The translations under genes were made by a program, and so were the position numbers. DNA of 55,286 nt, counting the filler, from Sphacelaria rigidula (lineage: Eukaryota), in the NCBI GenBank assembly GCA_964200075.2. It is 6 parts of 6 records of this genome, joined end to end, with 100 filler letters (N's around TTAATTAATTAA, not from the genome) between each part and the next. Parts side by side here need not be neighbours in the genome. Positions count along the whole stretch, not along the records: positions 9,233 to 18,364 come from CAXNAA020009222.1; 5 more parts are not named here. The stretch is one strand, 5' to 3'. The notes below the pieces were generated by a model, which had not been told where the DNA came from, ran no database searches, and worked only from the letters and a program-made list of their open reading frames with translations. Shown here in pieces: positions 2,601 through 42,013 of this stretch (its first letter is position 1; each line of letters begins with the position of its first letter).

Positions 2601-2660
2601 GATTGATTGATTGTCGCACTTTAACTGGCCACCCACGGGTCCAGCCGTGGTCGCATGATA
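2601..2660 (-). mobile_element. Non-LTR retroelement 3' end with (CAAT)n tail
   Basis: Shares an exact CCAGCCGTGGTCGCATGATA and (GATT)n with 29570-29642. Confidence 0.6.
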
Positions 2661-3636
2661 GACGAGTGTTGCATTTCCAGCACTAACTGCTACATTTTAA
2701 CTGTTCCGAAAAATAATCGCCTTTTGATTTCGTTGCTGAAGGCAGCATCCATGGATTGGAATCATTGGCGTCCTACTGCAAAGGTTTGGGAGCGGTGCCT
2801 AAATCTCGTCAACGGAACACCGTGGCCGAAGTTTGATGTCCTTTAAAAGCAACTGCCTCGACGATCATTGCGTTTGAAACGGGTTTCTAGAACGATCTGT
2901 GCCTCCTGAAGGCATCTACTTTCTTGCTCCGACACTTTTGTGCTACTTATTTTAGTTTCCTTGTATCGGAACAATATGTACATGGACGTCCAGAATCTGC
3001 GGATCATGAACAGTCAGTCCATTGCGGAGATTGCGAAGAGTTGACGAGACCATATATATGCCGCAAATTATAGGGTACGGCAGACGATGACAACCTTATA
3101 AAAGAAAATACCGGGACGTCATATCATAATCAGCTTAGTTCAGGACACGGCCCACATCCAATACTGAATGTGCAGTCTTGTGCTGACTTTCAAACACGAA
3201 GCGCAGGCTGATCATCATGAAGTATGCACTCAATACAAGTGGTATGGCAACTGTCTTCTGTGCAGCATAGAGCAAAAATGTACAGCGATGTGTAGCACGA
3301 GGCTCGGAGGGATTGGATTCGCCAGTTAAAGCCGTGCGCGGCGAAACCGATGTGCTTCGTACATCGCTTTTACAGAGCTTTTTGACCACACCTACCTTCT
3401 ATGCCGAGACGAACCCCACAGAGTTGACGATATATCTACCCACACACGATCCACTGAGACAAATCCACTTGCTATGGATAACCAAGACACATATCGACCA
3501 GTACACCTTGTCTCAACGTGAATCAGGCCGTATACACACCGCTGCTGCAAACTAGAAATACCCAGGCACACAAAACCATGAGCAGCAAAAATCATACGCC
3601 TGCGTGAGACAACGAGAACAATCCTGGCAGTGAGCC

Positions 3637-3695
3637 ATGGCTGCTAGCGTATCCTACGCCTTCCTAGTGGTGGTATCACTGGTGGGCAGCTCAGC
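3637..3695 (+). CDS. Candidate first exon encoding a signal peptide
   Basis: gccATGG context, MAASVSYAFLVVVSLVGSSA, followed by a consensus donor GC|gtaagt. No convincing downstream exon found, so possibly a pseudogene. Confidence 0.35.
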
Positions 3696-4708
3696 GTAAG
3701 TTCCGTGCAAACTTGGTGCAATCGCGTTTCAGATGCCAGAATAGAAAATGACCGACACATTTGTAAAATATGTTATCCTGTTGTGGCTCAGCGATGGTAT
3801 GTTTTATCGAGTCTGCTGACTCTGCCGTGCCTTATTCTTGAAGGCTTGGTATGCAAAGTGACACTAAATCAGTCTGATTAGTACCGACTGGTTCCCCGTT
3901 TTGAGCAAAACATCACCCAGCAGCGAATACCTTCCGCGATACCTACCCAACAGTCGCGTACATGGTATCATACTGACCACCATTGGCCACTGAAAAGGGT
4001 GACATAGCCTGATTTTCGTCTAATCCTTTGACAGCGACCCCCCCAGCAGGTGGACTGAGATGGAATATGAAACATTTGGGATTTAAAACAGCTCTTTTCT
4101 CACAACACAAAACGCCTCTTTCAAAATCATGTAGATGTGTGCATCCATGAATAACTGAGGCCCGGAGAACCCCGGACTGGTTTTGACCCCGCGGTCTAGC
4201 GTGCAGAGTCAGTGTGTGTGCTGTATGTCGTCGCTGGTTACGACGGCAAGAAACATTTAGCGTGCCATCGCTCTCCACTCAACACAACTTGCTGTAAGCT
4301 GCTGATGCATCTGCTTAGTGTTTTACAACGACAGTGAGAGAGCTATGCTGGCAGCACATGAGGGGTCAGGCAGGCGGCACAGGCCACGAGCAGAGTTCAA
4401 AAACACGTTACTTGTGCCCTTGTAATCTATGATTGCATTGTCGTGACCAAAATGAGACATACCGCTAGACAGCGAAGTAGTCCACCTGTAGCGAAACAAA
4501 GTAACCATTTTGATAAGCTGTGATTGGTCAGAATGGTCACTCTGCTCCTCTCGGACCTCGTTCCTGGCTTATAATTCTCCGTAGGAAAACTTCCACACGT
4601 TGGACGAGCACGAGTTTGACTCGCGGCACTCACACTCGTTGGCCTGCTCGTTGGCGGTAAAAATTAATAGGGCGAGCACTCGAGTCATTGCTCGTGATGA
4701 ACGACTTG

Positions 4709-5152
4709 AAACATCGTTTTCGTGAGATTGAGAGTAGAGCGCTGATTGAGAGTGGCCTTGATCATTCGCGTTGACTTGACCAATTTCCCATTTCTTGTGT
4801 GCTTTTCTTTGCCTCGATCACTGGCGTGTGCTTACAGCTACACGTCGATATCCCACTCAGGGATATTACGGGCCTCAGTGGCAAGCTACTACAGAAAGCA
4901 TACTGTGGGCCTCGTGGAGGGGGGCGTACTCATTTGTTGCTTGCCTTAGTCATTTGACCATTGACCACGCATCCCTTTCGAGACGGAGCACCGTTCCTAC
5001 TCCTAATAGAGACACCTCCAACATTCTGGCGCTCATTACTTTCCTTGGGCCTCGTGGAGGGGCATTTCGGAACTGAAACGATTAATTCACTAATTGCCCG
5101 CTTTTTAATCTCAGTCGTATCATCTCCTCTCAATTTCACGAAAACATTGTTT
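4709..5152. mobile_element. MITE family A copy, interrupted by a poly(C)-tailed retroposon
   Basis: TIR AAACATCGTTTTCGTGAGATTGAGAG / CTCTCAATTTCACGAAAACATTGTTT; colinear with 42014-42313 apart from a 140-bp insertion. Confidence 0.85.
4923..5045 (-). mobile_element. Poly(C)-tailed short retroposon (longest copy)
   Basis: 17-bp TSD TGGGCCTCGTGGAGGGG (4906-4922, 5046-5062); core GTACTCATTTGTTGCTTGCCTTAGTCATTTGACCATTGACCACGCATCCC on the + strand. Confidence 0.85.
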
Positions 5153-5454
5153 TGAGTAGAGGAGTCAGCAATTCGACGAGCAAATATTCATAATGAGCTC
5201 TTCGACGATCTTGAACCTAGAATCTTCAAGTACATATGCATATTATCTGCACATGTACAAGCATCAAGCACACGATGGTGGGGAGAGGTGCGACAAACAT
5301 CCCATTGTGGGGAGTCCGGTCCCAAAGGGGTTAGTACGATTTGTAATGGTCAAAATATTACAATATTCTACCGTTGTTTCACCAGGCTTCCACCATGTCT
5401 CGCGCCTCACTCGCCTATCGCTTCAGTGATGGATGATTGGTCCTTGGGTTGTCC

Positions 5455-5926
5455 AGAGAAGACGCAAGCAAGCGAGTCATTGCTCGTGATAGAAAAAACA
5501 GATGACTCGAGCAAGCTAGTCACACCGTGTGAAAAAGTAAATGAGTCGAGCAAACGACTTGGTAGCTCGTGTTGGGAAAAAACTAATAGGGCGAGCACTT
5601 GAGTCATTGCTCGTTGCGAAAAAATGTTACGAAGGCGAGCACTCGAGTCATTTCTCGTTGTGGAAAAAATTAATATGGCGAGCACTCGAGTCATTGCTCG
5701 TTGTGAAAAAAATAATAGAGCGAACACTCGAGTCATTTCTCGTCATGGAAAAAAAATAATAGGACGAGCACTCGAGTCATTGCTTGTTGCGGAAACATAA
5801 TAGGGCGACCACTCGAGTCATTGCTCGTTGTAAAAAAAAGTAATTACTCGAGCACACGAGTCATGCTCGTTGTGTTTTCGAAAAACATCCACGAGTGCAC
5901 TCGTTTTGACAAGCAACGACTCGTCC
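5455..5926. repeat. ~40-bp minisatellite with palindromic core
   Basis: About ten units of AAAAATAATAGGGCGAGCACTCGAGTCATTGCTCGTTGTG; one more unit at ~4660-4697. Confidence 0.8.

Positions 5927-5956
<30 letters not shown>
5927..5956. repeat. (GTT)n microsatellite
   Basis: Read directly from the sequence. Confidence 0.9.
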
Positions 5957-5957
<1 letters not shown>

Positions 5958-6603
5958 TCTTCACGTTAAAAAGTCGTTCCGGTATCTGCGCAGTGCTGTA
6001 CTGGGCATCTGACTCGGACGTCTTCCGTGGTCACAGGCTACCACCCTATGTTGGGTTAAAAGGAAAATCAGGAAATAAATGTGTGAATTGATATTGCCAA
6101 ACAAACATGGTTGACTTCGCGAGCTTTCTGCGAATAGGCCCCCACCCGCTGTCGAAAACCATCCCCCCGCCCGCCGGAAATCCCCGGATGTCCCTGGACT
6201 GTCAGCCTGTGAAAAGGTTCCGGGACGATGCTCGCTGTCTAAGGGTTTAAGGCCATAGGGGCAGCGCTAAGGGAGAAAAGGTGCCCCGACCAATCAGCGA
6301 TCTTCAATTCGTCCTGAAGTTAAAACTACAACTATCCAACAAAATATCTGACTGTACTGTTTGTGCTCTATGCTGCCACTCGGTGTCAACCTATATCTCC
6401 ATGCTTCACTGACCGAACCTACCTCTTGCTCCAAGTTTCCTTGCTGTCGCTATTGCTGCTGCTGCTGCAGCGTCGGCGGTGGCGGCGGCCGCTACCCCTC
6501 TCATGGCTCATGTTATCTGTTTATTACAGTACTACGAAAACCACCATGAGCAGCAAAAATCAAACTATTGCGTGAGGCTAGGAAAAAAACTTGGCATGAA
6601 GCG

Positions 6604-6662
6604 ATGGCTGCAAGCCTTTCCTATCTCTGTGTGTAATGACAGTATCTAGTGGGCAATTCACC
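6604..6662 (+). pseudogene. Disabled paralogous copy of the 3637-3695 exon
   Basis: Same 59-nt ATG-to-gtaagt spacing; MAASLSYLCV then in-frame TAA TGA. Flanks ~6540-6745 align with ~3572-3755. Confidence 0.45.
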
Positions 6663-8209
6663 GTAAGTTCTGTGCGATCTTGGTGCACAGGTTTTGTGCC
6701 AGCTGTGCATTTTATTTAAGATGACAGATTGGAAAATGACCAAACTACGTGAGTAGCACACCAACACGAGGTTCACGTCAGATTAATCCAATTCCTATCA
6801 TCGACGATACTCTGCGGCATTGTATGCTGCTATGCTATTTTATATCTTGCTGAGCTGTATTTTACAGACATACTTAAGTAATGCACTACTTCCAAGTACC
6901 CTGGAGTTACAAACTACAATATTGGTGCTTACAGCGCGGGTCTGAGTGTAGAGTCCAGTGTGACGAGTTCAGCCTGACGTTGGGATTCTGTCGTGGCACT
7001 GCGGTCCAAGAGACGGCAGGCTTCCGACCGTCTCCAGTTGCCCCACAGCGACTTTTTTTGTCACGCGGTGCAGTTTTCGTAGGAGGTCGTGTTTGTAATT
7101 ACTCGGTGGTACTGTTCAAATGCACCACGCCGGCGAGATTTCTCGGTAGGCAGACATTTAGATAGGATATACGGATTGCGTCATGGACGTGCCCTTGGCT
7201 CGGAATGACCATTTGGATATTGAAGACAACGAGGCAGCACGGGAAGGGTCGCCGACACAACCAAGAAGGACGGTTGCTGCAAATCCAGGTGCGGTTTGGG
7301 TAAGACCAACTATGTGACTCCACTGCGGTGTTATGTAGTGTTGCGTTTGCATGTACGATGATCGATGCGATGAAGGATGAAGGAGATAGCGTACTTGCAA
7401 ATTCAAAGCACAGGAGAAAATAGCGTGCCTTCTTTTCCAGACAGAGTTCAGCACCGAGACATCGAAGGAGTGCAGTGCAGCGTAGCACCGAGATACGTGC
7501 TGTATGTACGAGCACTCTACACTGGAGTGCTGAGATGTCCCACCAGCAGCACAGACGACAGTAAAGGGTATCACAGCAGCCAAGAAGAGCGACCCTGTCC
7601 AGATAATGATGGTTGTGATGATACCGCATACTATATAATGTAAACTGTCCGCATCAGACGACTTTTGCGGAAGTGTCACTGGTACAGTAGGTTCGTCGGA
7701 GATGCCACCCTGGTTTGTTGTGCAGTATATTGCACCGGAGCGCTCCGCGCGCGTTTCAGTCATAGTCTGGACACGCCCCATAGACGAGCGCGTGGGCACG
7801 ACACGACACGAGTCGGTCACATGATCATTTATAAATTACCTTTTCAGCACATGCACGTGATGATCGTGGGTAGTAAGCCAACTGTCTGTTATAGTTTTCA
7901 AGACGGAGCGCGACTGATGTGGAGAATTTCTCAGTTGAGAATCTCAGGCTCGTTTTTTTCAAAATTTCAGATGGTACGGGTAAGTATTCATCCTTAACCT
8001 CAAGGGGAACATAATAATTAGAGATCAGAAAATGCAAGGGGGACGGCAGGTAAGCACCCGCAAGAATGCGTTACACCCCAGAATGATGAGAAACTGGCTC
8101 TACAACCACCACGGCTACATCAGGTCCCCAAGCAAGCTGCCCCCTCTCTTTAACTGCACTGATCTCTACTGGGACACCCCATGGATAATGACGACCTGCA
8201 CAAAAATCC

Positions 8210-8393
8210 TACAGTACTGTATCTGTATTGTGTCCCGATGCTATCTTTCGGAACAAGACTGGTTTACATACTGCCTGCTGCTGGCACACGGTACAGTACT
8301 GTTCTGTATGTTGTCCCGATTCTGTCTTTCGGAACAAGACTTGTTTACGTACTGCCTGGTGCTGGCACACGGTACAGTACTGTATCCGCAGTC
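8210..8393. repeat. ~81-bp tandem duplication (2+ copies)
   Basis: TACAGTACTGT at 8210, 8292 and 8373; CTTTCGGAACAAGAC...GCTGGCACACGG repeated. Confidence 0.8.
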
Positions 8394-8519
8394 CCGTTTG
8401 GCAGAGTATAAGAGTAGAGCGCACCTTGGATACCCCCTTCTCCTATGCTTGTGCACAATAAAATGTTCAAAATGAAGTATTTGGCTTTTGGCACCTCTTC
8501 GAACAAAAAGAATTGAGAT

Positions 8520-8637
8520 TTAACCCTTTCGGAACCCATTAACGATTTCTGTTTTTTGTGAATCGGCATCATTTTGACTTCAAAATGAAAGAAAATGATA
8601 ACGATTCACAAAAATAAGAATCGTTGGTGGGCAAAGG
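8520..8637. mobile_element. Small hairpin MITE, piggyBac-like left end
   Basis: Starts TTAACCCTTT; AACGATTTCTGTTTTTTGTGAATCG pairs with CGATTCACAAAAATAAGAATCGTT; right end degenerate. Confidence 0.45.
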
Positions 8638-9132
8638 CTATGACATTATACATGGGTAGTGCACTTGTTTCTGTTCCGATTGTCCGATACTTGAATATAT
8701 ATGAAAATAATCAAAAATAAATCGTCTGTGACCCACAGACGGTGCAGTTGGATATATATACAAAATGTATACAAGCTGGGCCGGCCAAGACGCTGTCAAT
8801 CCGTCAGACGGCCATAACTCTGCTTCTGCTACGTTGTAGGTCATTCCGAAACCACCGCTGAAATCGGGGAGTCACACCTAGAAGCTACAGCTCTCCAAAT
8901 CCTGCATAGAGCACGTTCTGCACTCGAAGAGTCATCGGCCAATCACAGCGCGTCATAGCGCGGCGCGATTGAGGCATGAAACGGTCATTTTCGTGAAATT
9001 CCTGAAAAAAAAATGCGGCGCAATTGTAGAAAGTGACAGTCACGAACGGCAGCATCAGCAGCACAGCAGTGTCTCCCCTGCAAGAGCTCGCTGCTGACCT
9101 CGCGTATGCCAGGCGCTATGCGGTGGGTGAAG

Positions 9133-9232
9133 NNNNNNNNNNNNNNNNNNNNNNNNNNNNNNNNNNNNNNNNNNNNTTAATTAATTAANNNNNNNNNNNN
9201 NNNNNNNNNNNNNNNNNNNNNNNNNNNNNNNN
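9133..9232. other. Artificial contig linker
   Basis: N44-TTAATTAATTAA-N44 (stops in all six frames). Confidence 0.97.
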
Positions 9233-9424
9233 TTTTTTTGGCGTTTGTTCCCCCGCCAACACCCCCCCCCCCCGGGGCGCCCGCCGCTTTTTCTACCCCC
9301 CGCCGCCCCCCCCCCCCCCCCCCCCCCCCCCCGCCTCTCCCCCGCGCAATCCGCTGCACCCCTCCTGGTGTCTATACGGTCATGTGCGTGTGTGTACACG
9401 TGATCGTGCGTCGTGTTGCAACAG

Positions 9425-9559
9425 GTGAACCTAACGACTTCGCCAGGCAATCCCGTGCTCACGTGCCGCGTCAACAACAAGTATGCCTTCGTAGAACTCC
9501 GCTCAGCCGAGGAATGCACGAAGGCGCTCAATCTCAACGGCATTCCCTTTATGGGGCAG
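9425..9559 (+). CDS. U2AF2: U2AF65-like exon (first RRM, C-terminal half)
   Basis: acag|GTG AAC ... GGG CAG|gtgcgt; VNLTTSPGNPVLTCRVNNKYAFVELRSAEECTKALNLNGIPFMGQ. Confidence 0.9.
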
Positions 9560-12500
9560 GTGCGTTTATTTTCGTTTTTTTGGGGGTGGGCGTACTCATT
9601 TGTTGTTTGCCTTAGTCGTGTAGTCGTTTTTTTGGGGGGGGGGGGGGGGGGCAGGTTATTGGTTACCCCTTATACACGCAGGGTATGTGCTTGATGTGTA
9701 TATTCAATCCTGAGTGTCTATTTTTCAGCCCATGCGGTGAGCATGCATGGCACCGTCGGGGTGTTGAGCGTCTGCCCAAGCTCTCATCTGGTTACTGAGT
9801 TCATATGCAACGGCGTGAGACACGCGTGACACCTCGTTTGTTGGGTTGGGATTTTTCTCTTCTGCCCAGTGGATCCCTTTTTGGTTTCAGTACTTGTTGC
9901 CATGTGCACACAGGGATACATATGTGCAGGGGTGCGACGGTTGGCGAGGCATTTTTTTTCAGGCGACATAATCGGACCTGTCACTGTTTGATTGTTTACC
10001 TACAGTATCAGTCTTACAGATCCCCAAAACCGCTGATCTTCGCGAGATGTGAACTCTGGAGCGTTGAATGCCAAAGTTGATTGAATTGATCGTTTTCCAG
10101 CATTTCACCCTCCCTATTCCCTTCCCCCCACCTTTAACCTTTTTTTTCGGCCGTCAAAGGGTCATGACCATGACTCCCCCAGTTGTACCCCCCCCGTCCG
10201 TCCGTCCGTCCGTCCGTCCGTCCTCGTGCGTGTTTTCTTTTCCCCCTCACCCATGCTCGCCCCTGCAGAAAAATGAACAACTCCTTCGCTGTATTTTGTT
10301 GTGTTTTTTCCGGACGCATGTGTGGCTGAGAAGGATAGTGTTGACCGTTTCCTCAATATGTATTTTTTATCTGATATCTTTATTCGCTCACAGATGCTCA
10401 AGATCGGACGCCCGTCCAAGTATCAGGGTCCCATAACACCAGCATCGACGTGGCAGCGCCTCACTGGCCAGGAAGCTGCTGACAACGTGGTCGACCCCGC
10501 CACCAAGGTTTACCGGTGAGCTTCGTTTCTTGGATAATGAAGAAAGAAGGAAGTTATTTTTATTTTGCCTTCGTTCTACTCCAGTTTTGGTCAGCGAATT
10601 CGTCCCTTTTATTCATTCTGTTCGATCGAGGACGCTCTGGGCTAGTGGGGGAAGAGGTGTACAACCGTTCCACTCAGAATGGTTAATTCAAGTTGTTTGC
10701 TGTCGAATCTACTGTTACGCTCCGTTCCGTGTTGGTATTTTTCCCGGCTCGGGAATACTCTTGCTGGAGGGGCGTAGTGTGTGAAAAGTACGTGATGTTG
10801 CGCGAACGACTACGGTGCTGACGGTGTCACCGTAACCTGTGAAGGTTGGAGCTTGTTTTGAGTGAGGTAAAAGGAGGTACGCCGTGGCAGCTAGCCGTAG
10901 CTGTGACTCTTGTGCTGTCTCAGTGTCGTCTTGTCTGGAGATGCGGATCGCTGCAGAAAGCGGGGTTCATGGGACATGTCCCTAGTGTCCCTTGCTTGCG
11001 TTGCATTCGTTGGCGATCGAAAGAAAGTCCGCAGCGCCACAAGTGCTGGATCCGTCAACCGCCAGGGTAGGCCAACCGGATCTGCGTCATATTTTTGAGC
11101 GAAAATGACTTCGCTATTCAACAGATCACAACTCGTAGCTGCCAAGGGGTTGGGGTTGTCCATGAAGGGATGGGAAGTGAAGTTCATAGCAGGTGGTGTC
11201 AGCGAGATATGTAATTCTGGTCGTTCACATGTCAACGTATGAAATTATCATCGCCCTTGTCCTTGCCGACGAGACTTGTTGTCCACTTGCAGCGTGTTGT
11301 GTTCGGTTTACGTCTTCGTTCGGGCTAACCCAGCCCTATCCTCATCAATTTGCGTGTCGTTGGGTACCGACCACGGCAGCCGTGAATTCTTTTGAGCTTT
11401 GTGAAATCGGGTAGAGGTGCGCTGGTGATGCGAACGCCGTGTGGTTTGCGCTGTCGGACATATCGCTCTTTCAGCTGCATTGCTCTGCAGAGCAGCGCCG
11501 TGCTACTTCATGAGTTCCGTATATGATGTTTTCGAGATGTGCAAGCTGCTGAGAATATTCAATCCCCTCGGAAGTGTTTGATTCTACTGTAGGTGAAATC
11601 GATACTCACAGGGGTGCATAATTAGCATCTATGCGGACTCGAACAAACTTTTCTGCGGCCTAACGGTTTTTAATTTCAGTTGTGTATTCTCAATTGTTTT
11701 TACTCTTTTATTGTTCTTCGTGAAACAACCCCCACCCACAGGGAGCTCTACATCGGAAACACAAGCCCCGACATGACGGACATTGTGCTCAAGGACTTCC
11801 TCAGCAACACCATGGAAAAGGTAAGTCGTTGTGTTGAGTGGAAGGGAGCGGGGGGGTGGGGGGTGCGGGGTGTACTCATTTGTTTGTTTGCTTGCCTTAG
11901 CCGTCTGGTCATTCACCACGCATACCTTTGGAGACGAAGCACCGTTCCTACTCATGATGGAGACGCCCCCAACGGGGAACGGGAGGAAGGGGAGGAAGGG
12001 GGGACAACGACGACGACGACAAAGCGTTGGCGTATCGCCTTCGCCTCACTATTTTATGGGCACTAGCTGCACTGCAAACGATGCGCGGAATAAATCCTAC
12101 TGTCATCACTGAAGAATCTCTCGCTTCGCTCTGTTTCGAGTGCGGCAGCACGTTTTTCTTTGCACGCCTTCATCTCCTTCCCTTTCTCGGGGCCAATCCG
12201 TAGTGTTGGGGGATCAACCTATCCCTCCCCGCGCACCATCGTGCAAATTTACATCTCACGTACAAACATGCACACAAAGCCAGCTCTTCACTGCATGATG
12301 TAATGTACTCCGAACCCCTACGGACTTGTCTCCAATTTATCCACGTCCCAGGTTGGGTTCTCCACCAAGGCGGGGAGTCCGATCATCCATGCGCGTGTGT
12401 CGGGTAACTTTGCGTTCGTCGAGTGCCGGTCCGTGGAAGAATGCACGGCGCTGCTGAACCTCAACAACATCCCCTTTATGGGCCAGGAGCTGAAGATCAA

Positions 12501-14695
12501 CCGTCCTTCGAAGTACCCCGGCCCGGAGACGCCACACTTGAACTGGCCGGATGTGCTAGCCAGGTATGTATCTGTGTGTTTGCAAAGCACATCGTAAGGG
12601 GGTGTCATTCCGAGGTCTTGAGTGTATATTTGCAAAGTTGATGATGATTTTTTTTCTGTGACGAGTGTGTGTGTGTGTGTGTGTGTTTGCAGAGTACATT
12701 ATGAGTGTGTGTATTTTTAGAAGTGCTACGCTTTTTTATATGTTTCATTACTTGATGCTTTTGGGGGGGGGGGGGTCGTAACTTTTCGCATGAAAAGCAG
12801 TTGGTTGTTCCAGGTTCGGTGTCTGATCGAATTTTGTTGTGTTGATTGAAAATCATGAAATAAATTATGTGATGGTGAAGATGGTGACAAAACCAGGATC
12901 AGGAACATTTTGCAGCTTCCCCCTGCCCCATCCCGCACAACATGCAGTTTCATACAAGAGAGCATAATCGTCCTTCCCCCTGGCTTGCTTTGGTGCACGA
13001 TTGGCCAGGTTCACTTCGGGTAATCCCAATGCAGCAATCCCGGCTCCGGCCACTACATTCGGGGGCGTTGATGCGGCCCAGGCGGCGGCGCAGGCCGCCG
13101 TGGCAGCTCTAGGTGTTGTGTCGCTCGCCCGGCCGACCACGACCCTGCGGCTGAACAACATGCTGACCGCGGGAGACCTTGAGGATGAGGCTGGCATGGG
13201 CGACATTGAGGAGGAAACCAAGGTGGTATATACTACATAGTATATATTTTTGGATAACTTTTTTGTTTTCATTTGTAATCGTTAACTAGAATCATCAGTT
13301 CTCCGAAGATCGCCGGGGTTGTTCATTTGGGAGGATCGCACCGTTTTGTGTTTTTTCCAAGTACAAATATGGTGCCCATTCATCAGCAGAGCCTGGCGGT
13401 GAAAATGTCGACGGATGAGTCCACAAGTAATATTGGGGGCTCTCGGGTGCCGACAGCTGCTCCAACTTGATGCTTTTTAACCAGGGGAATATGACGTTTT
13501 TGGTCAGTTGTTATGTGCTGCTCTCTTTGTTGTCCAGTTGATGACCTGTGACGAACTTGAGTAAACCGACCACCACCTGAGGCATGCTGTTTGTGCGTTC
13601 AATATTTGGCAAAACCCGAAGCTTAGCGTATCGCCACGAAAATGATAACCCGGGCATCCTTATTCCATCGTGATCTCCGAGTCGTGGTCATTTCTTTTTA
13701 ACCCCTTCATACGGTGTACATGATTGCTTCTAGTCGAGCAGTTGCGGTAGGGCACTGACGCCGAGCGCGAGTATTAGTTAAACTGTGTCCAAACAGTAAA
13801 CGGCTGGTGACGGGCACCACACGTGTTTTTACGTGATTTGGTTTTGCTTAACTATATGTGGAGGGATTTTGGGGCACTTGAATGAGGCGTGACGCGGCTT
13901 TCGAAACTGGAAGATGGTATTCAGTGATCCATATGGTAACCCGTTTTCTTTTGTTTCTCGGCTGGGCGGTAAACCACGATAATGTCACTCTGTGTGTGTC
14001 AATCTGCATTACAGGAGGAATGCGAGAAGTTTGGTAGCGTCAAGTCTGTGCACATTCCTCGCCCCAGCACTACGAACGAGCAAGAGAAACCCGGGGTGGG
14101 CTTCGTCTTCGTGGCTTTCGATGCTGTCGATTCCGCCGCGAAGGCTGCTGCCAGCCTAAGGGCAAGGACGTTCGACGGCCGGAAGGTGAGGAGGGCTCTG
14201 TGGTACTTTCCTATTTGTGTCTCGTCCCGTGTGTTCGCATGTGTGTTCTCTCACCACGTCTTTACCGAGAAATGTGTACAGTATGTGGCCGAGGGGAGAG
14301 CGTGAAAGTGGGGGGTGGAATCTTGAGGTTGAGGACTCCGCACGAGGAAGAGTTTTGAAGTGTGACGGAAACTTCGAGAAGAATCGTGCGCATGCGACTA
14401 GTCTGTCTTCGTGTCTGGATTCGTCGCAGCGGAGCAAAACGCAAGTGTTTGCCTTGAATTTCTTTTCTCTGGCCTCACATTGCAAGCCCCACCAGAAGTG
14501 CGCTCCCCCCGTCTTCTCGTTTATTTTGTTTCTCTTTCTCATCGTCCTCTTTGTTTCTCGTGTGTGCGCCGTCCGTCCCGATAGGTTGAGGTTACATACT
14601 GGGACGAAGAGAAGTTCAACCAACGGATATTCACTGACGAAGGAAACGACGAGATGACTCAGGCGCAAGCCGCTGCGAATGGAGGGGGCATGTAG
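9425..14695 (+). CDS. U2AF2: U2AF65-like splicing factor (U2AF large subunit family), 5'-partial, 7 exons, 347 aa visible
   Basis: Exons 9425-9559, 10394-10515, 11742-11820, 12352-12563, 13009-13222, 14015-14185 and 14585-14695 all have AG/GT boundaries with compatible phases. They splice to RRM (PGNPVLTCRVNNKYAFVELRSAEE...LKIGRPSKY), RRM (RELYIGN...NFAFVECRSVEE...LKINRPSKY) and a C-terminal UHM (TTTLRLNNML...DIEEETKEECEKFGSVKSVHIPRP...GVGFVFVAF...RTFDGRKVEVTYWDEEKF). Stop TAG is at 14693-14695. The N-terminus lies off the contig. May be a paralogue rather than the canonical U2AF2. Confidence 0.85.
9587..9623 (-). mobile_element. Poly(C)-tailed retroposon, truncated copy
   Basis: GGCGTACTCATTTGTTGTTTGCCTTAGTC flanked by a 15-bp TSD TCGTTTTTTTGGGGG (9572-9586, 9624-9638). 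Confidence 0.8.
10394..10515 (+). CDS. U2AF2: U2AF65-like exon (end of first RRM and linker)
   Basis: cacag|ATG CTC AAG ... TAC CG|gtgagc; MLKIGRPSKYQGP...DPATKVY. Confidence 0.9.
11742..11820 (+). CDS. U2AF2: U2AF65-like exon (second RRM, RNP2)
   Basis: cacag|G GAG CTC TAC ATC GGA AAC ... GAA AAG|gtaagt; ELYIGNTSPDMTDIVLKDFLSNTMEK. Confidence 0.9.
11867..11973 (-). mobile_element. Poly(C)-tailed retroposon copy
   Basis: Aligns to 4923-5022; G-rich flanks on both sides. Confidence 0.8.
12352..12563 (+). CDS. U2AF2: U2AF65-like exon (second RRM, RNP1)
   Basis: cccag|GTT GGG ... GCC AG|gtatgt; VGFSTKAGSPIIHARVSGNFAFVECRSVEEC... Confidence 0.9.
13009..13222 (+). CDS. U2AF2: U2AF65-like exon (Ala-rich linker, start of UHM)
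   Basis: gccag|G TTC ACT ... ACC AAG|gtggta; ...RPTTTLRLNNMLTAGDLEDEAGMGDIEEETK. Confidence 0.88.
14015..14185 (+). CDS. U2AF2: U2AF65-like exon (UHM core)
   Basis: tacag|GAG GAA TGC ... CGG AAG|gtgagg; EECEKFGSVKSVHIPRP...RTFDGRK. Confidence 0.9.
14585..14695 (+). CDS. U2AF2: U2AF65-like terminal exon
   Basis: gatag|GTT GAG GTT ACA TAC TGG ... ATG TAG; VEVTYWDEEKFNQRIF completes the UHM. Confidence 0.85.
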   Translation, partial: VEVTYWDEEKFNQRIFTDEGNDEMTQAQAAANGGGM

Positions 14696-15358
14696 ACACA
14701 TCATTGAACATATTTTCGTGCGAATTTTCCGGCCAGCTGTCGATGACAAATTGGGCTGCGGGCAAACACCGGTTGGGGGCGTTCCGGAGATCGTTGGGCG
14801 TGATGTGGCTAATTTGAGCACAGGTTGTGGTGGGCACAGGAACTCTACACGAAGTAAAGAGAGGGATTGCTTTAACGATACCTGTGATCGGTTCGTTTTC
14901 CGGTTTAACCCCCAAAATAATTCAAGAATGTGCGCTTGGTTCATGTGGGCCGATAACCATGGTGGCCGTCTTCGTCGAGTGGCTGTTTCGATTCCCGCAA
15001 AGGCTGTCACAGGGTGGTCGGGTTGGTTTTTCTCTATCCCCAGTTGTTCGTTCTCCACGTTAGCATAATTGGTTGTGAGGAATGATGTTGGCAATTGTCA
15101 CGCATCGTTCATTTCTTGGTTTGATCCTTTGAAGTGTGCAGGTTTCTGATATCTATGGTGTAGTGATGAGCAACGTTTCTCGGCTTTTTTTGACATGAGT
15201 GCTGTTGAAACCACATACTTTGTATACTACGTAGTATATAACTAGGACTGTCCTCGGTGGCAGAGTGTTTACCAATACCAATGATGTAGCTTTTTTTTTT
15301 TCTGTAAGACGAGTCTGTTGACGGATGTGCATTTATTCTCTGCAAACGTTTGTGCATC

Positions 15359-15805
15359 TAGTGCAAGGTGCAGAGTGGAGATTACATCAAGTACCTTGCC
15401 GAGGCAACGCGAGCCCTGGGAAAGATGATGGTTGCTGCCCATTGTGGGAAACATTATTGGCGATGGAGGTATGAGTCATTTGCCTGTTGTGAGGAACCGG
15501 GCTCAAATGTGCTCATGGGTGTCGCCTTCGGGAACTCGACAGAAAAACGGAAACAAACGGTGGTGTGTTACGGAGGGGAAGACACGTCGCCGAATCGGCC
15601 CGGTTCCGACGAGTATTTTCTATGGTCGATACCGCTCAGATGGTATCTTTGGTCGATCTGTGCGGTGTGTAGGTACACCGTTCGGCGCGCTGGGAGGCAG
15701 GGTGTTGAACGTTGGGCTAAGCCGGCAGCTGAAGGGGTTTTGCGTGGCGATATGTTTTCCTCACGTCCCTGGTGTGTGTAGCGATGTACCGATTCATGTG
15801 TTGAT
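15359..15805 (+). pseudogene. Decayed Fanzor1/TnpB-like RuvC nuclease fragment
   Basis: Colinear motifs: K..S.DYIKYL, YWRWRYESF, TVVCYG...P.RPG, DEYF, CAVC, LRG.MF, then (frameshifted) GVCSDVPIH. RuvC-I and RuvC-III are absent. Recognised by motif order only. Confidence 0.5.
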
Positions 15806-18364
15806 GAGATGATGGAGAAAAACGAAGCAACAGCTGTATCATTGACATCAGTAGCTCGTGCGGACAAGTGCGGCCACGCGTGGGCCGCGCTGGAGCTGTT
15901 GGACACATGAAATGATGTTGCGTCATCCTCCCAGGCGAACTTTTGAGTCATCGTCACACCATGGAGTATCCTGGAAAATGGGGTTGGACGTTTGAATGGG
16001 GCTCAAACCCCCTTGCAAATATCCCGTTCTCGCCTGGATGGTGTCATCAACGCAAGCGACTTCGAATATTTTTTCCTTCCCCGAGCTTGCCTCGTCGCGC
16101 ATTGTTCCGTCCGTCTCTAAAGCCAAATTCGTCTCTTTTTGGAAATTCGAACGGCTCTCACCAGGTGAGAGGAAGACCTATCGTCGGCTCCCTTCGCGTG
16201 CAATGAAAGACGGAAACGTGCACAAAACGCACGGGCAGGTCGGGTAGGGTATGTACTTTTGTGAACTTCGGTGAAACACCGTGGTATTTCACCCAAGGTT
16301 TGAGTGGATAGGTGGTGGAAAGGCTCGAGTTGTGTGGCGCTGTCTTCTGGATGGACCGGCTACTATCACACTGGACAGTAGTGTATGTCAGGGATGCACC
16401 GGTGGCTGCTAGACCAATTGCTTCTGCAGCAGGAGATGGTTTTCACTGGCGCTCATGTGGCCAACACAGGATTGAAAGCAGTCTCTTTTTAAAGCAGAGA
16501 GCTGAAGAGAACAAAAGAGAGTGGCAGACAGCATTTGGGTGCCGAGGTGGCTGGGTCCAAGCATCCTCAATCCTGGAACGAAAAGTCAGTTGGTATACGC
16601 ACGTAAGACCAAACGAAACCATTCACTTACAACGCTGATGTATTGGTCTCGCCAGCTCTTCACACTTAATCTACTGCAGGCTACGAAGCGTAGTTACCTT
16701 GATACTGTACACTATTCTATAACATACCATGACAGCATATTTTTCACTGTAGTATTTTATGAACTGTGTGACTGAACGTGGAAGTGTCACGAATCGCGTG
16801 GTGAACGTCTAGAGGTGGAGGGTGCCAGTCTGTGTGCTCCCTCGCAGTCATGTTCAGACGACACGCAAGCACCAGGATCCGACCGGGTTCGATGATTTTG
16901 CGTGCAAGGTGGTTCAAGTAATGTTCATGTAGTCGCACTCCACCTGCAGTATGTCGAGCGCATGCTCGAGACAACACCAGCTACAGGTGAGTCAGGCTTA
17001 CTTTAGACGACGACCAGCAACACCTCTGATGTCGCAGTCCGAGAACAGCTCAGATGCTTCTTGCATTATCGGCGAACAGGCGAATTGCTGCTGTACTTGG
17101 TGAGATGCTAGCCCCAGCCTTATCTAAAAGGCTAAACAAAATTCAGTCAAGGGCTGGAAGGGCCAGAACAAAAACGAAGCCTGTGCATCATACGCCTGAA
17201 GTTGAAACGAGAAAACCTGCAAAATTAGAGTGGAGGGGAGAACTCGTTGCAGATCTAGTGGAGAGGTGAATCCTGTGAAGCAGAGGAAACCTTTACACGC
17301 TGGTTCACGTTGATCACCCAAAAGACACTCATCGGCAAAACCTCACGGGAATTAGACGCTGAAATTTTGCACTAATATTCTACGGGTAATTACGTAACTT
17401 TCGAAGTTTTTTTTCTTCACTTTTTGAATTTTTTCACCGTTTTTCGGGGGATTTTGATGGAAAGAAAATTCTCCGGGCCTCCATGTGTGTTGTATCCGCC
17501 TGAAAAAGTCGTTCCTTGTTCATCGATGCCTGGCTGGAGGACAGGGGAGCCACCTTCCCTCAGGTTTTCAGAACCGTTTTCATCTTGTGCATATAGGTCA
17601 TGAAAACCAAACTCTCTAGCTTTCTCAGGTTTTGCGAAATCGGTGCAGTCTGTTAGCGTGACCACCGCTGCGCAAACGGGAGGTAGCTTTGATCCGGTTT
17701 GCATGGCGTACTGCCGACAGCGTCGCGTGAAAGTCACAAGGCCCTTGCTGTCGGCGGTTGATGGCGTGGGTCTCGAATGCAACGACATGCGGTTGATCGT
17801 AGAGCACCCTCGTCTCTCCTTTCGAGTTGTGATAATCCTTGATCTCCTGACATCGGAATAATTATTACCTATGGGAAGGTACTCGTGCTGTACCGAGCTG
17901 TCGACGCGACCACCGTATGCGTGCTGCAGATTGCCTATGCGCCACGCTAGCAACAGTTAGGTCACCACCAGGGGTATCTTTTTTCACTCTGCATGTCAAA
18001 AAGGTCCCTACAAATGTTTGATCTCTCACGCACACACACCTCAACTGGCGTGTCGTCAAGCGCCCCGTTGGCGGGAGGGGGAGGTTGGGGAGAATCAAGA
18101 ATGAATAACACCCCCTAAGTTCAAATTGGATCTATCTGGTATTGCCGAAGCACCGCCCTTGCTGGCATGTGTGTGACAGAGTACAGTAGTAGCGGTGACG
18201 AGAACATTGCCCTGTTTTTCAACGACATATTCTTCAGTGCACAGACGCGCGTCTTGTCCTAAAAGAGAGGCAGAGAGTAATTAATTGATCTTCGCATCAA
18301 GCAAGCGAGAAGAGACGAAATCTCTCCGCAGCTCTCGGTGTTCTGAGACAACATACAACAGCAA

Positions 18365-18464
18365 NNNNNNNNNNNNNNNNNNNNNNNNNNNNNNNNNNNN
18401 NNNNNNNNTTAATTAATTAANNNNNNNNNNNNNNNNNNNNNNNNNNNNNNNNNNNNNNNNNNNN
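18365..18464. other. Artificial contig linker
   Basis: N44-TTAATTAATTAA-N44. Confidence 0.97.
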
Positions 18465-19224
18465 CGGGACGGAGCACGCCGGGTTCTCAACGGACCAGGC
18501 TATCGCAGGGAGGAGGGGGGGGGGGCGAGTTCGTTTCTTGTAACCCGTGCACAGCTTCCCACTGATCATGCTTCACTCGTGATGCGTTTGGCCATGCGTG
18601 ACAACAGCATCTCGTCGTGTCGAACAGTGACCATCTTCCAGAATAGGATTGTTTCGAAGATGCTCTCTCTCTCGGTTGTCCAAAAATTGAGATTGTTCTG
18701 ACCAACTCTCATTACACGCATTTATGTACCTCTGATCGTGGTCATCGCGAAATGCCGTCGGCAATTACGTACTTCCTTCTCGGGATGTTATACTTTGTCG
18801 CTCCATCCACCCGTAGCTTCTAGTCAGACGACCGTTCCCATTTGTATAGAGTGCGCACTTGCCTATGGCAACCATGTGACAGCCGGTAAGTCGTTCCGGC
18901 GCATTAAGACAGGGGTTTCTTGGATCATTGGGCAGAGCTTGGATCAGCTCGAGCATGACTGGAATGATTGCGACCGTACCCAGTTGTTCTGACAGGTTGA
19001 CGGTGATGTACATGCAAGTTTCGTGAAGCTGAATCGTTTTTTTGTTGATTTCCGCGGGCAGCTTGGGTCTAGTGGTGTTGCGCGGTTTCCTGGATTATCG
19101 CGTGACAGGGTGCCCTCAGCGGACTTGTCGTCCTGCGGGAACTTTGTCTGGATCATCTTTTTCCGAAAGTCGAGATCGGCGTGAATTGTTCACTCTATTC
19201 CTTCGACACTGCTCTGATTAGTAC

Positions 19225-20008
19225 CAGGGCTCTTTACGGTACACGTTACTCGTACGTTACACATCACAAACGTCATGCCACAGCGGTGTGGCGTGACGTG
19301 AGGTATGTTTTTTGAAGTAGTTATAAAATGTGACGTGACGTAACGTATCGGTAAAAACATGTGACGTGACGTGACGTATCCTTTTTCAAGACGTGACAAA
19401 TGTGACGTGACGTGACGTGTTTGTTTTTAAACGTCACAAAAAATGTATTTTGAAACGTTTATTGTAACGTGTAACGTATCAAAGTTACACGTTTGTTTAT
19501 ATGTCACACGTTTGTGACGTCTGAACGAACGTCACAAACGTTTTTTGTGACGTCTGAATGAACGTCACTAACGTCACATGCTTAACTTGTACCACAATGT
19601 GACGTGGCGTACCGGAAAGTAAATGTGACGTTTGTGACGTATCATTTTTCAAGACGTCACGAATGTGACGTGACGTGATCTTTTGTGGAAACGTCACATC
19701 AGCTTATTTTGAAACGTTTGTGACATCTGAATGAACGTCACAAACGTCACCGTGAACCTCCCTCGACGCGGTCGAAGTGTAACGTTTCTTTTTACGTCAC
19801 ACGCTACAAACGTAATGTATATTATATGTCACACGTTACAATAAACGTTTCAAAATACGGCACTGTGACGTTACGTGACGTATATTTTTTCAAGACGTCA
19901 CAAGCGTGGCGTGAAGTACCGGTAAAACATTGTGACGTGACGTAACGTACATTTTTCAAGACGTAACATTTGTGACGTACCGCGTAACGTGTAACGTAAA
20001 GAGTCCTG
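19225..20008. mobile_element. Non-autonomous hAT-type element (MITE) with dense TGACGT subrepeats
   Basis: TIRs CAGGGCTCTTTACGGTACACGTTAC and GTAACGTGTAACGTAAAGAGTCCTG; 8-bp TSD ATTAGTAC (19217-19224) / GTTAGTAC (20009-20016). Confidence 0.85.
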
Positions 20009-20406
20009 GTTAGTACGTGCACTCGCACTGTGGACCCCTGCGAGTCGGAGGGTTCCCCAAACAAAGAACTCCCGTGGTGATAATGATAGTGCGGTCATGC
20101 GTACATGGAGCTCCATAGTTTACCTGGTGAAAGCTCGATTTCTCTGTGGTCCTTGCTTGTCGTCTGCTCGGGGAACAATTGGCGAGTAACAGCTTGCGAA
20201 GCGCCTCTGCTTTATCTCGGGGCACTGGAATCCGCACAGTTTGCAAGTGATCGGTCAGGCCCAGCGCCTCTACCTCACTGCTGCAGTCAGCACTCTTTTT
20301 CGATGCCAGAGTAGGGGGCTTTGCTCCTCTCTCGGACCAAAATATCTCGCTGAGTTGGATGCGAGCGAAGCTGACGCGATCAATGCGCTCGCGTCGTCAA
20401 ATATTC

Positions 20407-22213
20407 CAAGGTTGTGTTCTGAAAGGTACGGATACATTCTGTAGGGTATGAGATTCCTTACAGAACTTACGGAAGTGACGAGTACCAGTATAAAAATCTT
20501 ACAGAGTTGACAGAAGTGTCGGGTATCGGTATGAAACTCTTACAGAAATGACAGAACTTGTCGGGTGCGATACGGAATGCTTACAGAAAACCGGTACCGG
20601 CAATCATGTATCTCTTTTAGGGTTTGCCCGCCCCTCGGGTTAGGGTAGATGTTTTGTACAGAGCTCATAGAAATGCCGGGTAAGGGCATGGGAGGCTTAC
20701 AGAACTCACAGAAATGTCGGGTAAGGGTATGGAAGGCTTACAGAACTCACAGAAACTGTCGGGTAGGGTACGGAAGTTGCACAGAAAACCGTACCCGCAA
20801 CCGGGCATACTATCAAGAGCATACCCGTGTCCCCCGGTAACGGTACAAACGGCTTACGGAATTCGCACAACTATCGGGGACGGGTATGAAGGTCTTGCAG
20901 AGATTACAGAACTGTCGGGTAACTATCGGGTACGGTAAACACCCGGCAAAATACCCCGGGTATACGGAAAACCGTACCCTGCAGAACTCGACCTTAGTAT
21001 TCTCATCACCTCTGTAGTGGGAGCTACGTCACTACAACAGTGGCGAAATACAGATGACAGTTCACGAAAACTCTGGACGGCTTCACGGGGTAATTAGAGA
21101 AATGCTACACGAACGATCGCAGTAGTACAAGTGCACAGCATCGTCAACATCCGTCGGCTTCACGTACACTCCCTGAGAGTACATGAAGGAGCATTCACGG
21201 GTGCCCGTTCTCTGGAAGCCCGTTGGCCCGCGACAAAATCGCCGACGGCCTGGAAGACTTTCGGTGGCAGCTCATACTCGGTGCTGTACATGTCGATAAC
21301 GGCCTGGTGTTTGATGACCACGACACAACCACCATCAACGTCGATGACGTGCGTCTCGCTACTTGATCCCCCAGTGGCGCAGATGAACCGCCCCCGCTCG
21401 AGCCACCTCTGAAGTCTGGGGGTGATTAATCCTGACGGTCTGCAGGGCTGCTCATGTTTCGTGTGTCCACTCAGCGGTACCATGTATCCCGTCAGATCCC
21501 AAACTAAATAACTCTTCAAGATTGAATTATTGTTGGTGTGCAGTTTTGAATGGAGGAGTTGGGTGAGTTGATCGATGAGAGGTACATGTTTAGGTCATGA
21601 AGTTGTATTTGGATTGAACCTATATCCGTACCTCGACCCAAGGTATATATCTGTGCTCATACCTGCAATCGGGTATATCTATGACGGTATACCCTAACCC
21701 CGGGTAGGGGTATGGGAGGCTTACAAATCTCACAGAACTGTCGGGTATCGGTACTGGATGAAAGTCTTACAGAAGTTACAGAACTTGTCAGGTACGGTAT
21801 GGGAGACTTACAGAAAACCGGTACCGGCAATCGGGTATTTTTTCAAGAGCATACCCGCGCTCCGGGTACAGGTAACCGTTCTGTACAGAACTCACAGAAC
21901 TGTCGGGTAGGGGTTTGGGAGGCTCACACAACTCACAGAAACTGTCGGGTAGGGTGTAGGTTGCACAGAAAACCGTACCCGCAATCAGGTATCTTAGCAA
22001 GAGCGTACCCGCGCTCCCCGCTCACGGTTCGGGAGTCCTACAGAGATTACAGAACTAACAGGTAAGGGTATCAAAGTCTTAAAGAGAATAATACACAACT
22101 GTCGGGTACCGGTATGAAGGTCTTACAGAAGTCACAGAACTGTCGGGTACGGTAAATACCCGGCAAAATACCACGGGTATACAGAAAACCACACCCTACA
22201 GAACACAACCTTG
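20407..22213. mobile_element. Composite non-autonomous hAT-type element
   Basis: TIR CAAGGTTGTGTTCTG ... CAGAACACAACCTTG; perfect 8-bp TSD AAATATTC (20399-20406 and 22214-22221). Internal ACAGAACT/GTCGGGTA subrepeats, a second right end at ~20996, and unique sequence at ~20997-21620. Confidence 0.85.
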
Positions 22214-23744: not shown

Positions 23745-24023
23745 ATCAAGTCATCCGGCATGGCGTGTACCGTGATCGTCATGGTGCTATTCCTTGTCAC
23801 GAAGGTCAAGCTTTTATGTTATTTGTGTCCCAATCGGATATTTCGGGGTATGGCGTGTACTTTGATCGCCATGTTGCCATCGTTGGTGACGGGAGTCAAT
23901 TTTTCGCGTCATTCGTGCCCCGATCAGATACTTACGAAATCTGACGAATGGCGTCAAAATTTGACCCCCGTCCCCAACGACAGCGGTATAGCGGTCACGG
24001 TACGTGCCATTTCCCAAGACTGT
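23745..24023. mobile_element. Degenerate MITE-like element (90-bp direct repeat plus inverted copy)
   Basis: ATGGCGTGTAC..TGATCG occurs at ~23760 and ~23850, with an inverted copy ending GGTCACGGTACGTGCCATTTCCCAAGACTG|TA. Confidence 0.45.
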
Positions 24024-26776: not shown

Positions 26777-27292
26777 TGAGGTTCTCCCGCATGTGAGGAA
26801 CGAGACGAAGACTATGCATTATTGGTCACAATGATGCATCCCCACCCGATACTAGCATGCTGCTCTTGTGGTAGCTTATGATAACATCATAGCATCATAA
26901 TGGGATCGTGATAGAACTTCCACGACGGTACCATCGCACCTCATGTCATGCCATTGGCGAGAATATTTGTCATGACGTGGGAATTTGCAAATGTTCGTGG
27001 AACAATGAAGGTGCGGCGTGACCGCGAACGTATTCAGCCCTAGCCAGAAGCAACACTCGAAGCAATTGTGCAGAGAATATTAGATGAATGTAAATGCAAA
27101 CGAAACGCGCACTAGATCGCAGTTTGGTGAAGGCGTTCAACATTCCCCATGTGATGCACGTTGGCAGAATGGGCACAATACCCTACAGTATAGTGATCTG
27201 ATATCTTGCCTCCGTGACATTACAATGATACTAATATAGAAATCACGTGCCCCCCATTTATTAGCCTTGTATCACTGCAGTTTCATGGTTAT

Positions 27293-27695: not shown

Positions 27696-35791
<8,096 letters not shown>

Positions 35792-41976: not shown

Positions 41977-42013
41977 GCGGCACTGCGTGGAAACTATTCA
42001 GACCATTAATCTC

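Follow-up and report, generated by a model that had tools for sequence, protein, structure and literature searches.

What sets the orientation of a retroposon within an intron is the question raised by the window described here, a 55,286-base stretch from Sphacelaria rigidula (assembly GCA_964200075.2). Two plus-strand genes of this window, a U2AF65-like gene and PRP8, carry in their introns copies of a C-tailed element which lie with the G run first (antisense) behind donors and with the C tail last (sense) in front of acceptors. The copies are 5′-truncated 3′ ends of a long interspersed nuclear element (LINE), their clear target-site duplications begin with a C run, the introns are polarised from G tracts near the donor to C tracts near the acceptor, and all seven placeable copies match this polarity in their orientation. 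Probably, therefore, the orientation is set by C-run-primed insertion into tracts already present close to the splice sites, whereby the duplication copies the tract.

Judged by its sequence, the C-tailed element is the 5′-truncated 3′ end of a LINE encoding an apurinic/apyrimidinic endonuclease (APE) and a reverse transcriptase (RT). It is no short autonomous element; the copies represent the last 30–227 nucleotides (nt) of the LINE, with the second open reading frame (ORF2) running through them. A 22-nt motif from the 3′ end of the element retrieved three marine-metagenome contigs, and these have over 800 nt upstream of the unit in common. A single open frame of 271 codons traverses the 105-nt unit, terminating at the TGA of AAATGAGTAC, which precedes the C run by 8 nt. 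The ORF that continues upstream in metagenome copy L001 encodes P0121, which shares 83% identity along its entire length with P0124 (1360 amino acids); in P0124, Exo_endo_phos (residues 170–414) and RVT_1 (740–989) domains form a single endonuclease-RT (EN-RT) ORF; P0121 itself gave no match to Pfam. An Ectocarpus protein is 66% identical to the LINE ORF. The reading as a short interspersed nuclear element, which would be non-coding and have a 5′ head of its own such as a Pol III promoter, was rejected on account of ORF2 extending through the whole unit, of the homology over more than 800 nt upstream and of the missing Rfam family, the search over the whole window having returned 0 matches.

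The 3′ end is constant in all nine window copies and all three metagenome copies, which terminate in ...GAGTAC(G/A)CC or a variant thereof followed by C-rich runs. The three metagenome copies all end in GCC and 6–8 C, with one T interrupting the run in L003. The 5′ ends are staggered along the reference, at positions 595, 706, 726, 730, 774, 785, 785 and 797, and one further copy is cut by a contig start. The LINE appears to belong with the (C)n-tailed elements that bear the name RTE-X in Ectocarpus, an assignment taken from annotation notes and not from a tree.

In order to place the copies relative to splice sites, gene models independent of the initial annotation are available for both genes. 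The 3′ part of the U2AF65-like gene occupies positions 9425–14695 of the plus strand on the second contig (S2) and comprises seven exons (9425–9559, 10394–10515, 11742–11820, 12352–12563, 13009–13222, 14015–14185 and 14585–14695), which enclose the introns U1 (9560–10393), U2 (10516–11741), U3 (11821–12351), U4 (12564–13008), U5 (13223–14014) and U6 (14186–14584); a partial intron U0 (9233–9424) precedes them. The spliced ORF runs for 347 codons uninterrupted to the stop with GT-AG introns throughout, is identical to the public annotated S. rigidula protein P0152 (305 amino acids) from 'MGQ' to the stop, and is collinear with brown-alga orthologues. Pfam RRM matches are found in the gene, and the best PDB match of exon 4 is a U2AF65 RRM (E=4e-8). 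The host is a brown alga: an S2 exon used as query is 100% identical to the S. rigidula protein, and the other best matches are from Pylaiella (93%), Ectocarpus (90%) and Ascophyllum (87%).

The middle part of PRP8 lies at 27793–35791 on the plus strand of the fourth contig (S4), with eight exons located by tblastn with seven PRP8 homologues and with splice junctions refined against P0048. Its introns are P1 (27949–28898), P2 (29052–30296), P3 (30384–31404), P4 (31546–32469), P5 (32599–32974), P6 (33160–34077) and P7 (34269–35688), flanked by the partial introns P0 (27696–27792) and P8 (35792–36826). Pfam identifies the gene by the U6-snRNA-binding domain of PrP8 (U6-snRNA_bdg, E down to 3.9e-29), while its identity of 87–93% to many lineages carries no taxonomic information. 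Together, both genes provide 13 complete introns of 376–1420 nt and three partial ones. As they are situated on separate contigs, they are unlinked pieces whose mutual orientation is arbitrary.

The RRMs of the U2AF65-like gene deserve an observation of their own. RRMs 1 and 2, both within 9425–12563, are closely similar copies, both resembling RRM1 of U2AF65 and sharing the ending ...FAFVE(L/C)RS.EECT.(A)LNLN.IPFMGQ.LKI.RPSKY.GP, as in the Pylaiella orthologue. From the sequence, this looks like an internal RRM duplication that replaces the canonical RRM2.

Blastn and profile searches detected nine copies of the element and one weak match in the window; their coordinates are given here against the longer LINE reference, and all copies share the same 3′ end. 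Four copies follow a donor and are antisense, i.e. on the minus strand. At +27 nt behind the U1 donor (9560) lies 9588–9617 (reference 797–826), at +46 nt behind the U3 donor (11821) lies 11868–11973 (726–826), and at +71 nt behind the P3 donor (30384) lies 30455–30490 (785–820). The fourth, 34457–34683 (reference 595–816), starts 179–188 nt after the P7 donor (34269) and, at 227 nt, is longer than the approximately 95 nt originally recognised. Three copies precede an acceptor and are sense, on the plus strand: 27696–27768, whose 5′ side is cut by the contig start, lies 25 nt before the acceptor at 27792, 32389–32437 (from reference 774) lies 21 nt before the P4 acceptor (32469), and 31037–31132 (730–825) lies 272 nt before the P3 acceptor (31404). 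The coordinates and distances of the initial annotation were reproduced, and its orientation rule holds for all seven placeable copies of the two plus-strand genes, with a one-sided chance of 1/128 (0.008).

The remaining copies do not enter this count. The copy at 42410–42451 (minus strand, reference 785–826) resides in an intron of a minus-strand gene on the fifth contig (S5). It had been listed as not fitting the rule, and it is indeed mid-intronic (relative position 0.52 of 3788 nt); being sense with respect to its gene, it is neutral and not contrary. The copy at 4922–5042 (minus strand, reference 706–826, 96.7% identical to metagenome copy L001) is without gene context, since none of the 63 ORFs of its contig S1 has a Pfam match; the same search over 139 ORFs of S1 and S3 gave none either. 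The weak extra match at 18509–18575 (E=0.034, nhmmer with a nine-copy profile) is not placeable in any gene.

The flanks of the insertions indicate what kind of target was used. Among eight copies checked, two possess exact target-site duplications, two have probable ones in which the homopolymer length differs, and four have none that is recognisable. Both exact duplications, CCCCTCCACGAGGCCCA (17 nt) and CCCCCAAAAAAACGA (15 nt), are initiated by a C run. The 17-nt duplication surrounds the copy at 4922–5042 (4906–4922 and 5046–5062), the 15-nt duplication the copy in U1 (9572–9586 and 9624–9638). In the latter case the second repeat extends as G18 to 9651, so that G5 at 9582–9586 of the duplicated target matches the first five Gs of G18 at 9634–9651. 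The two probable duplications contain a C run as well, and the other four copies have only C-rich flanks. For the antisense copy in P3, the probable duplication consists of G8-A-G10 (30424–30442) and G5 (30494–30498).

Tracts of the same type adjoin further copies. The copy in U3 is flanked on both sides by G-rich tracts (11846–11866 and 11975–12003). The C-rich tail and flank of the copy at 27696–27768 (27771–27789) constitute the pyrimidine tract of the acceptor at 27791–27792, and the C-rich tail of the copy in P4 (32438–32455), stopping about 14 nt short of the acceptor AG (32468–32469), supplies a pyrimidine tract too. The C-run duplications thus leave a C (or G) tract on either side of each insertion. 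Together with the 5′-truncated copies and their common 3′ end, they lend support to the earlier suggestion that the retroposon targets or regenerates the tracts.

The most likely mechanism is target-primed reverse transcription that starts from a G run. The nicked target strand would end in Gs that pair with the 3′ end of the RNA, ...GUACGCC(C)n; on the strand of the element the target would start with a C run, and this run would be duplicated on both sides of the insert. Suitable targets would be offered by the introns of both genes, as G-rich tracts in the first ~100 nt and as C-rich, pyrimidine-tract-like tracts in the last ~100 nt. Since every sense-strand G run reads as a C run on the opposite strand, a target preference alone would give antisense copies near donors and sense copies near acceptors. 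The duplication would retain the tract on the side of the splice site, and the tail would add the same base. With the tract kept and the tail added, insertions could sit at 12–46 nt from a splice site and would multiply and lengthen the tracts. We infer that the orientation goes back to target choice and not to selection, that the tracts are older than the copies inserted into them, and that they function in splicing as ordinary linear signals. Ectocarpus introns are reported to possess a classical 3′ polypyrimidine tract (PMC3787667).

The same arrangement would result if the LINE inserted in either orientation and purifying selection removed those copies which harm splicing, a filter that we regard as unlikely. 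A G run or an antisense acceptor-like motif near the real acceptor would compete with it, an antisense copy close to the donor would be harmless because the mini-intron is too short, and a sense copy near the acceptor would add pyrimidines. The antisense tail does read GTACTCATTTGTTGCTTGCCTTAG, a plausible cryptic 3′ splice site, and sense tails do form the pyrimidine tract of two acceptors (27771–27792 and 32438–32469). However, the antisense copy in P7 extends 179–414 nt from the donor and would leave room for a usable cryptic acceptor, and the clear duplications show a C-run targeting that by itself predicts the orientation.

The tracts which C-run-primed insertion would use are apparent from the base composition of the introns; the following statistics cover the two genes and describe a pattern that was picked post hoc. 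Within 100 nt of the donor, GGGG is present in 7 of 14 introns and CCCC in one; within 100 nt of the acceptor, CCCC is present in 11 of 15 and GGGG in none. Counted from the donor, the first GGGG comes ahead of the first CCCC in 11 of 14 introns (Wilcoxon p=0.0085); counted back from the acceptor, CCCC is encountered before GGGG in 14 of 15 (p=0.002). The GC skew of the 13 complete introns starts at +0.23 in the first decile and has fallen to −0.145 by the last one. The first third exceeds the last third by 0.29, a value reached by 0 of 5000 null samples (−0.004 ± 0.053), for which segments were drawn at random from the four remaining contigs. On either DNA strand the G...C arrangement reads the same, i.e. 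it is reverse-complement symmetric. The comparison of thirds holds for 10 of 13 introns (p=0.01), for 9 of 13 after trimming 50 nt from each end (p=0.03–0.05) and for 7–8 of 13 after trimming 100 nt (p>0.4). The polarity lies in the vicinity of the splice sites and fades beyond about 100 nt.

The polarity had also been claimed for introns devoid of the element. With LINE zones masked, 9 of 15 acceptors still have CCCC at a distance of up to 100 nt and none has GGGG (0/15), a strong signal, whereas at the donor the masked signal is weak (GGGG 4/14, CCCC 1/14). LINE zones, which comprise the copies and their flanking duplications, hold nine of the 18 G runs and four of the 27 C runs of at least 5 nt in complete introns. 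A large share of the G polarity on the donor side may therefore stem from the LINE. Element-free examples are G13 at 12763–12775 in U4 on the plus strand, which has no LINE nearby and a C-rich predicted partner at 12919–12934, and the plus-strand G-rich tract at 14308–14318 in U6, where C6 (14505–14510) lies 74 nt before the acceptor. No degenerate LINE copies were found beside these element-free tracts with the nine-copy nhmmer profile. Particularly long C runs on the plus strand are located in partial introns, namely C12, C6 and C27 at 9262–9332, 92–162 nt before the acceptor at 9424 and less than 100 nt from the contig start, and the cluster C12, C15, C7, C9 and C9 at 36757–36821 in P8, which stops 5 nt before the contig end.

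There are exceptions to the arrangement which the initial annotation had omitted from its examples. P2, P4 and P6 contain several C runs and no G run of at least 5 nt, and U5 contains a G run and no C run. Runs on the 'wrong' side are C17 at 30701 (relative intron position 0.32), C7 at 31887 (0.37), G5 at 12208 (0.73) and G5 at 35338 (0.75). In the S5 intron there is nearly no skew (first 100 nt +0.05, last 100 nt −0.02; first third 0.05, last third 0.13). As separate observations on simple repeats, a (GTCC)n microsatellite directly follows a C8 run in U1 (10196–10225), and U4 contains a (GT)n run (12667–12690).

Part of this invites the view that the seven matches are a post hoc small-sample coincidence and that the polarity merely reflects what introns have universally, G richness around the 5′ splice site and a polypyrimidine tract. 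Only two genes are involved, the polarity is gone once 100 nt are trimmed from each intron end, and the fourteenth intron, that of S5, is almost skewless. Nevertheless, we consider coincidence and generic composition very improbable: the one-sided probability of seven out of seven is 0.008, the C-run duplications provide an independent mechanistic reason for exactly this direction, and long G/C homopolymers are over-represented, with 11 runs of at least 12 nt as compared to two of A/T.

Several points weigh against C-run-primed insertion into pre-existing tracts. The orientation rule rests on seven copies in two genes and was noticed post hoc. Four of the eight copies checked are without a recognisable duplication, and the targeting is deduced from two clear and two probable duplications together with a note in the literature. 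Empty sites were not observed, and the order of events, with the tract before the insertion, is one that we infer. Selection on orientation may be mixed with target choice; the antisense tail carries a sequence resembling a 3′ splice site (TACTCAT...TTTGTTGCTTGCCTTAG). With half of the G runs associated with the LINE and a weak donor signal after masking, the LINE could itself be the source of the donor-side polarity. Finally, RTE-X membership follows an annotation note rather than a phylogeny.

A different role for the tracts was put forward in the initial annotation, according to which 5′ G and 3′ C tracts would pair in the pre-mRNA, bridge the splice sites and reduce the dependence on U2AF2, the LINE supplying tracts in the proper orientation. 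The precedent it invoked, complementary repeats that bridge splice sites (AC/GT in fish), is accurately rendered; PMC4691745 covers both (GGG)m-(CCC)n and (AC)m-(GT)n. The G...C arrangement is the one that pairing requires and is statistically significant, and its reverse-complement symmetry is as expected of a pairing element. Furthermore, the last 15 nt at the acceptors of U4, P3, P5 and P7 are pyrimidine-poor. Partition-function folding of 10 of the 13 complete introns (P2, P4 and P6, which have no G run of at least 5 nt, were excluded) predicts long-range pairing in U1, U4 and P3 and partial pairing in U6. In U1, G18 and G5 pair with C runs at 10188–10262 (probability 0.8–1.0), in U4, G13 and G5 pair with 12919–12980 (0.7–1.0), and in P3, G8/G10 pair with the C/T-rich segment 31341–31352, 52–63 nt before the acceptor (~1.0).

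On the other hand, long G runs are predicted to pair with any pyrimidine tract present, and in six of the ten folded introns (U2, U3, U5, P1, P5 and P7) they pair locally. The C tracts would be equally able to pair across the exon with the G tract of the next intron. With respect to their joint occurrence within an intron, the two tracts behave as independent. Eleven of the 13 complete introns contain GGGG in their first 200 nt, and 11 likewise contain CCCC in their last 200 nt; the two coincide in 10, compared with 9.3 expected (Fisher p=0.29, n=13). Runs of at least 5 nt assigned to intron halves co-occur in seven introns, compared with 7.7 expected (p=1.0, n=13), P2, P4 and P6 having C runs without such a G run and U5 the reverse. 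The two ends of one intron show no higher complementarity than 5′ and 3′ ends in mismatched pairs (p=0.19). Duplexfold calculations on 300-nt intron ends were discarded as uninformative, their energies being governed by segment length. Taken together, these results give the proposed G:C looping, and its feedback between transposable elements (TEs) and splicing, no positive support and do not speak decisively against it. We deem bridging improbable. With only 13 introns the power is almost nil, so the independence does not refute pairing.

Insertion primed at pre-existing tracts could also be extended to a self-reinforcing loop, which we think rather doubtful. In such a loop, G/C tracts active in splicing, be it by bridging or by tract-binding factors, would be the landing pads of the LINE. 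Oriented insertion and duplication would copy and lengthen them, and the element would be tolerated and would build the long polarised introns of brown algae.

The reading of tract lengths depends on the assembly. The window is composed of six separate contigs of 9,130–9,132 nt each, S1 (1–9132), S2 (9233–18364), S3 (18465–27595), S4 (27696–36826), S5 (36927–46056) and S6 (46157–55286), joined by the spacers N44-TTAATTAATTAA-N44 at 9133–9232, 18365–18464, 27596–27695, 36827–36926 and 46057–46156. The spacers are artificial, and features crossing them are consequently not real. A G or C run of at least 9 nt lies within about 100 nt of six of the twelve contig ends (68–80, 9262–9332, 18515–18525, 36757–36821, 36961–36969 and 45963–46056; runs of 9–27 nt). 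Together with the excess of G/C over A/T homopolymers of at least 12 nt in the window (11 vs 2), this suggests that the assembly seems to break at long G/C tracts, whose printed lengths are possibly unreliable. As long G/C runs break the assembly, the introns of interest would be under-assembled.

The S5 gene (40617–44626, minus strand) is small, conserved and of unassigned family, with relatives that are mostly short predicted proteins. Its first coding exon (approximately 44405–44626) and the next one (approximately 40518–40616) are separated by the intron of 3788 nt from the donor at 44404 to the acceptor at 40617. This first intron of 3.8 kb is packed with repeats, and the LINE copy at 42410–42451 adjoins one of them (41502–42416), at about 10^4 times the single-copy depth. 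The depth was obtained with the DNA read run X1 of the same organism (~30x single-copy depth), whose reads were mapped to S5, one of the six contigs; the read runs X6–X8 cover only repeats on S5 and show no splice joints there.

Further repeats were noted alongside. For 41502–42416, 36927–37231 and 4757–4905 the summed X1 word depth is about 2–3 x 10^5 as compared to ~30 for single-copy sequence, corresponding to thousands of copies. The LINE fragments in S5 and S1 adjoin one common repeat (4757–4905 is 88% like 42060–42208); fragment and adjoining repeat could be a composite or nested element. The antisense LINE tail at 9581–9612, 11867–11893 and 4923–4947, read on the plus strand, consists of GTACTCAT, TTTGTTGCTTGCCTT and AG and resembles a branch point, pyrimidine tract and acceptor; such a tail could be exonised. 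In S6, direct repeats at 48807–49767 and 53992–54880 (0.9 kb, 91–94% identical, about 5.1 kb apart, with 75-nt tandem units inside) enclose ORFs at 50373–52546 with a weak Pol beta-barrel match below the cut-off (E=4e-5). By these features, they are possibly a long-terminal-repeat-type element. Minisatellite arrays occupy 19287–19968, 20470–22149, 5551–5839 and 43375–43464, with TGTGACGTGACG-type units, 41-nt units, 42–44-nt units and (AGACCAAAC)n.

The closest known relatives are found in Ectocarpus, whose TE library lists RTEX-1 with '(C)n 3'', RTEX-2 with '(C)n termini/TSD' and 'C-rich' in the column of target-site duplications (TSDs) (PMC12477816, supplementary file 1). According to the same source, non-autonomous RTE-X derivatives are very abundant and LINEs are enriched in introns of old genes. 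The element described here shares with RTEX-1_Ec32, RTEX-2_Ec32 and RTEX-N1/N2, as listed there, the brown-alga host, the (C)n 3′ end and the C-rich duplications, as well as the frequent 5′ truncation, the abundance in introns and the single EN-RT ORF (here via the homologue P0124). It differs in the host species, in an identity of 66% to the one named Ectocarpus protein and in a clade assigned without phylogeny. In Ectocarpus, RTE-X LINEs that combine a (C)n tail with C-rich duplications are thus on record already, and the targeting of tracts is largely explained by this known kind of LINE. A literature search on poly(C)-tailed LINEs gave nothing relevant beyond the Ectocarpus supplement. The pattern of orientation by intron position appears undescribed in the main text of PMC12477816, where the term 'orientation' has 0 occurrences.

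With regard to bridging, the (AC)m-(GT)n introns of teleosts show genome-wide co-occurrence of the repeats across introns and were shown to be functional by minigenes and U2af2 depletion, and (GGG)m-(CCC)n introns have already been proposed for humans, as given in Lin et al. 2016 (PMC4691745). Those introns and the ones studied here have in common that simple tracts complementary to each other stand at the two intron ends; as in the class proposed for humans, G is found at the 5′ and C at the 3′ side. In contrast to them, the present introns display no co-occurrence signal (n=13), are known from sequence alone, and contain homopolymers of up to 18–27 nt, many of them tied to a LINE; in the main text of PMC4691745 the string 'transpos' has 0 occurrences.

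The G runs within about 100 nt after donors and the C-rich pyrimidine stretches before acceptors resemble linear splicing signals. Such signals comprise intronic splicing enhancers made of G triplets and polypyrimidine tracts. The runs observed here are far longer than triplets. For the G-triplet signals, McCullough and Berget are cited in PMC4691745.

The insertion proposed above likewise has parallels among LINEs, since its RNA tail would pair with the nicked target, its duplications start with the base of the tail, and simple repeats would be seeded or extended. Targeting by homology to the tail is exemplified by L1, whose poly(A) tail goes together with insertion at TTTT/AA, and by microsatellite-targeting LINEs of the R1 clade. 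Contrary to L1, the tail base is C and not A, and the targets are tracts next to the splice sites which differ in type between the two ends of an intron. This opposition of the preferred targets couples orientation to position. The general theme of simple repeats seeded or extended by LINEs appears in the abstract of PMC3812793.

Brown-algal introns are unusually long and rich in TEs, and about 46% of the Ectocarpus genome is given as intronic in PMC12477816. If a high-copy LINE is steered by homopolymers close to splice sites, this would provide a mechanistic reason for the abundance and tolerance of LINEs in the introns of old essential genes such as PRP8 and U2AF65, and it would explain the origin of the long G and C homopolymers. 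The pattern furthermore offers a non-vertebrate system in which (GGG)m-(CCC)n bridging may be tested.

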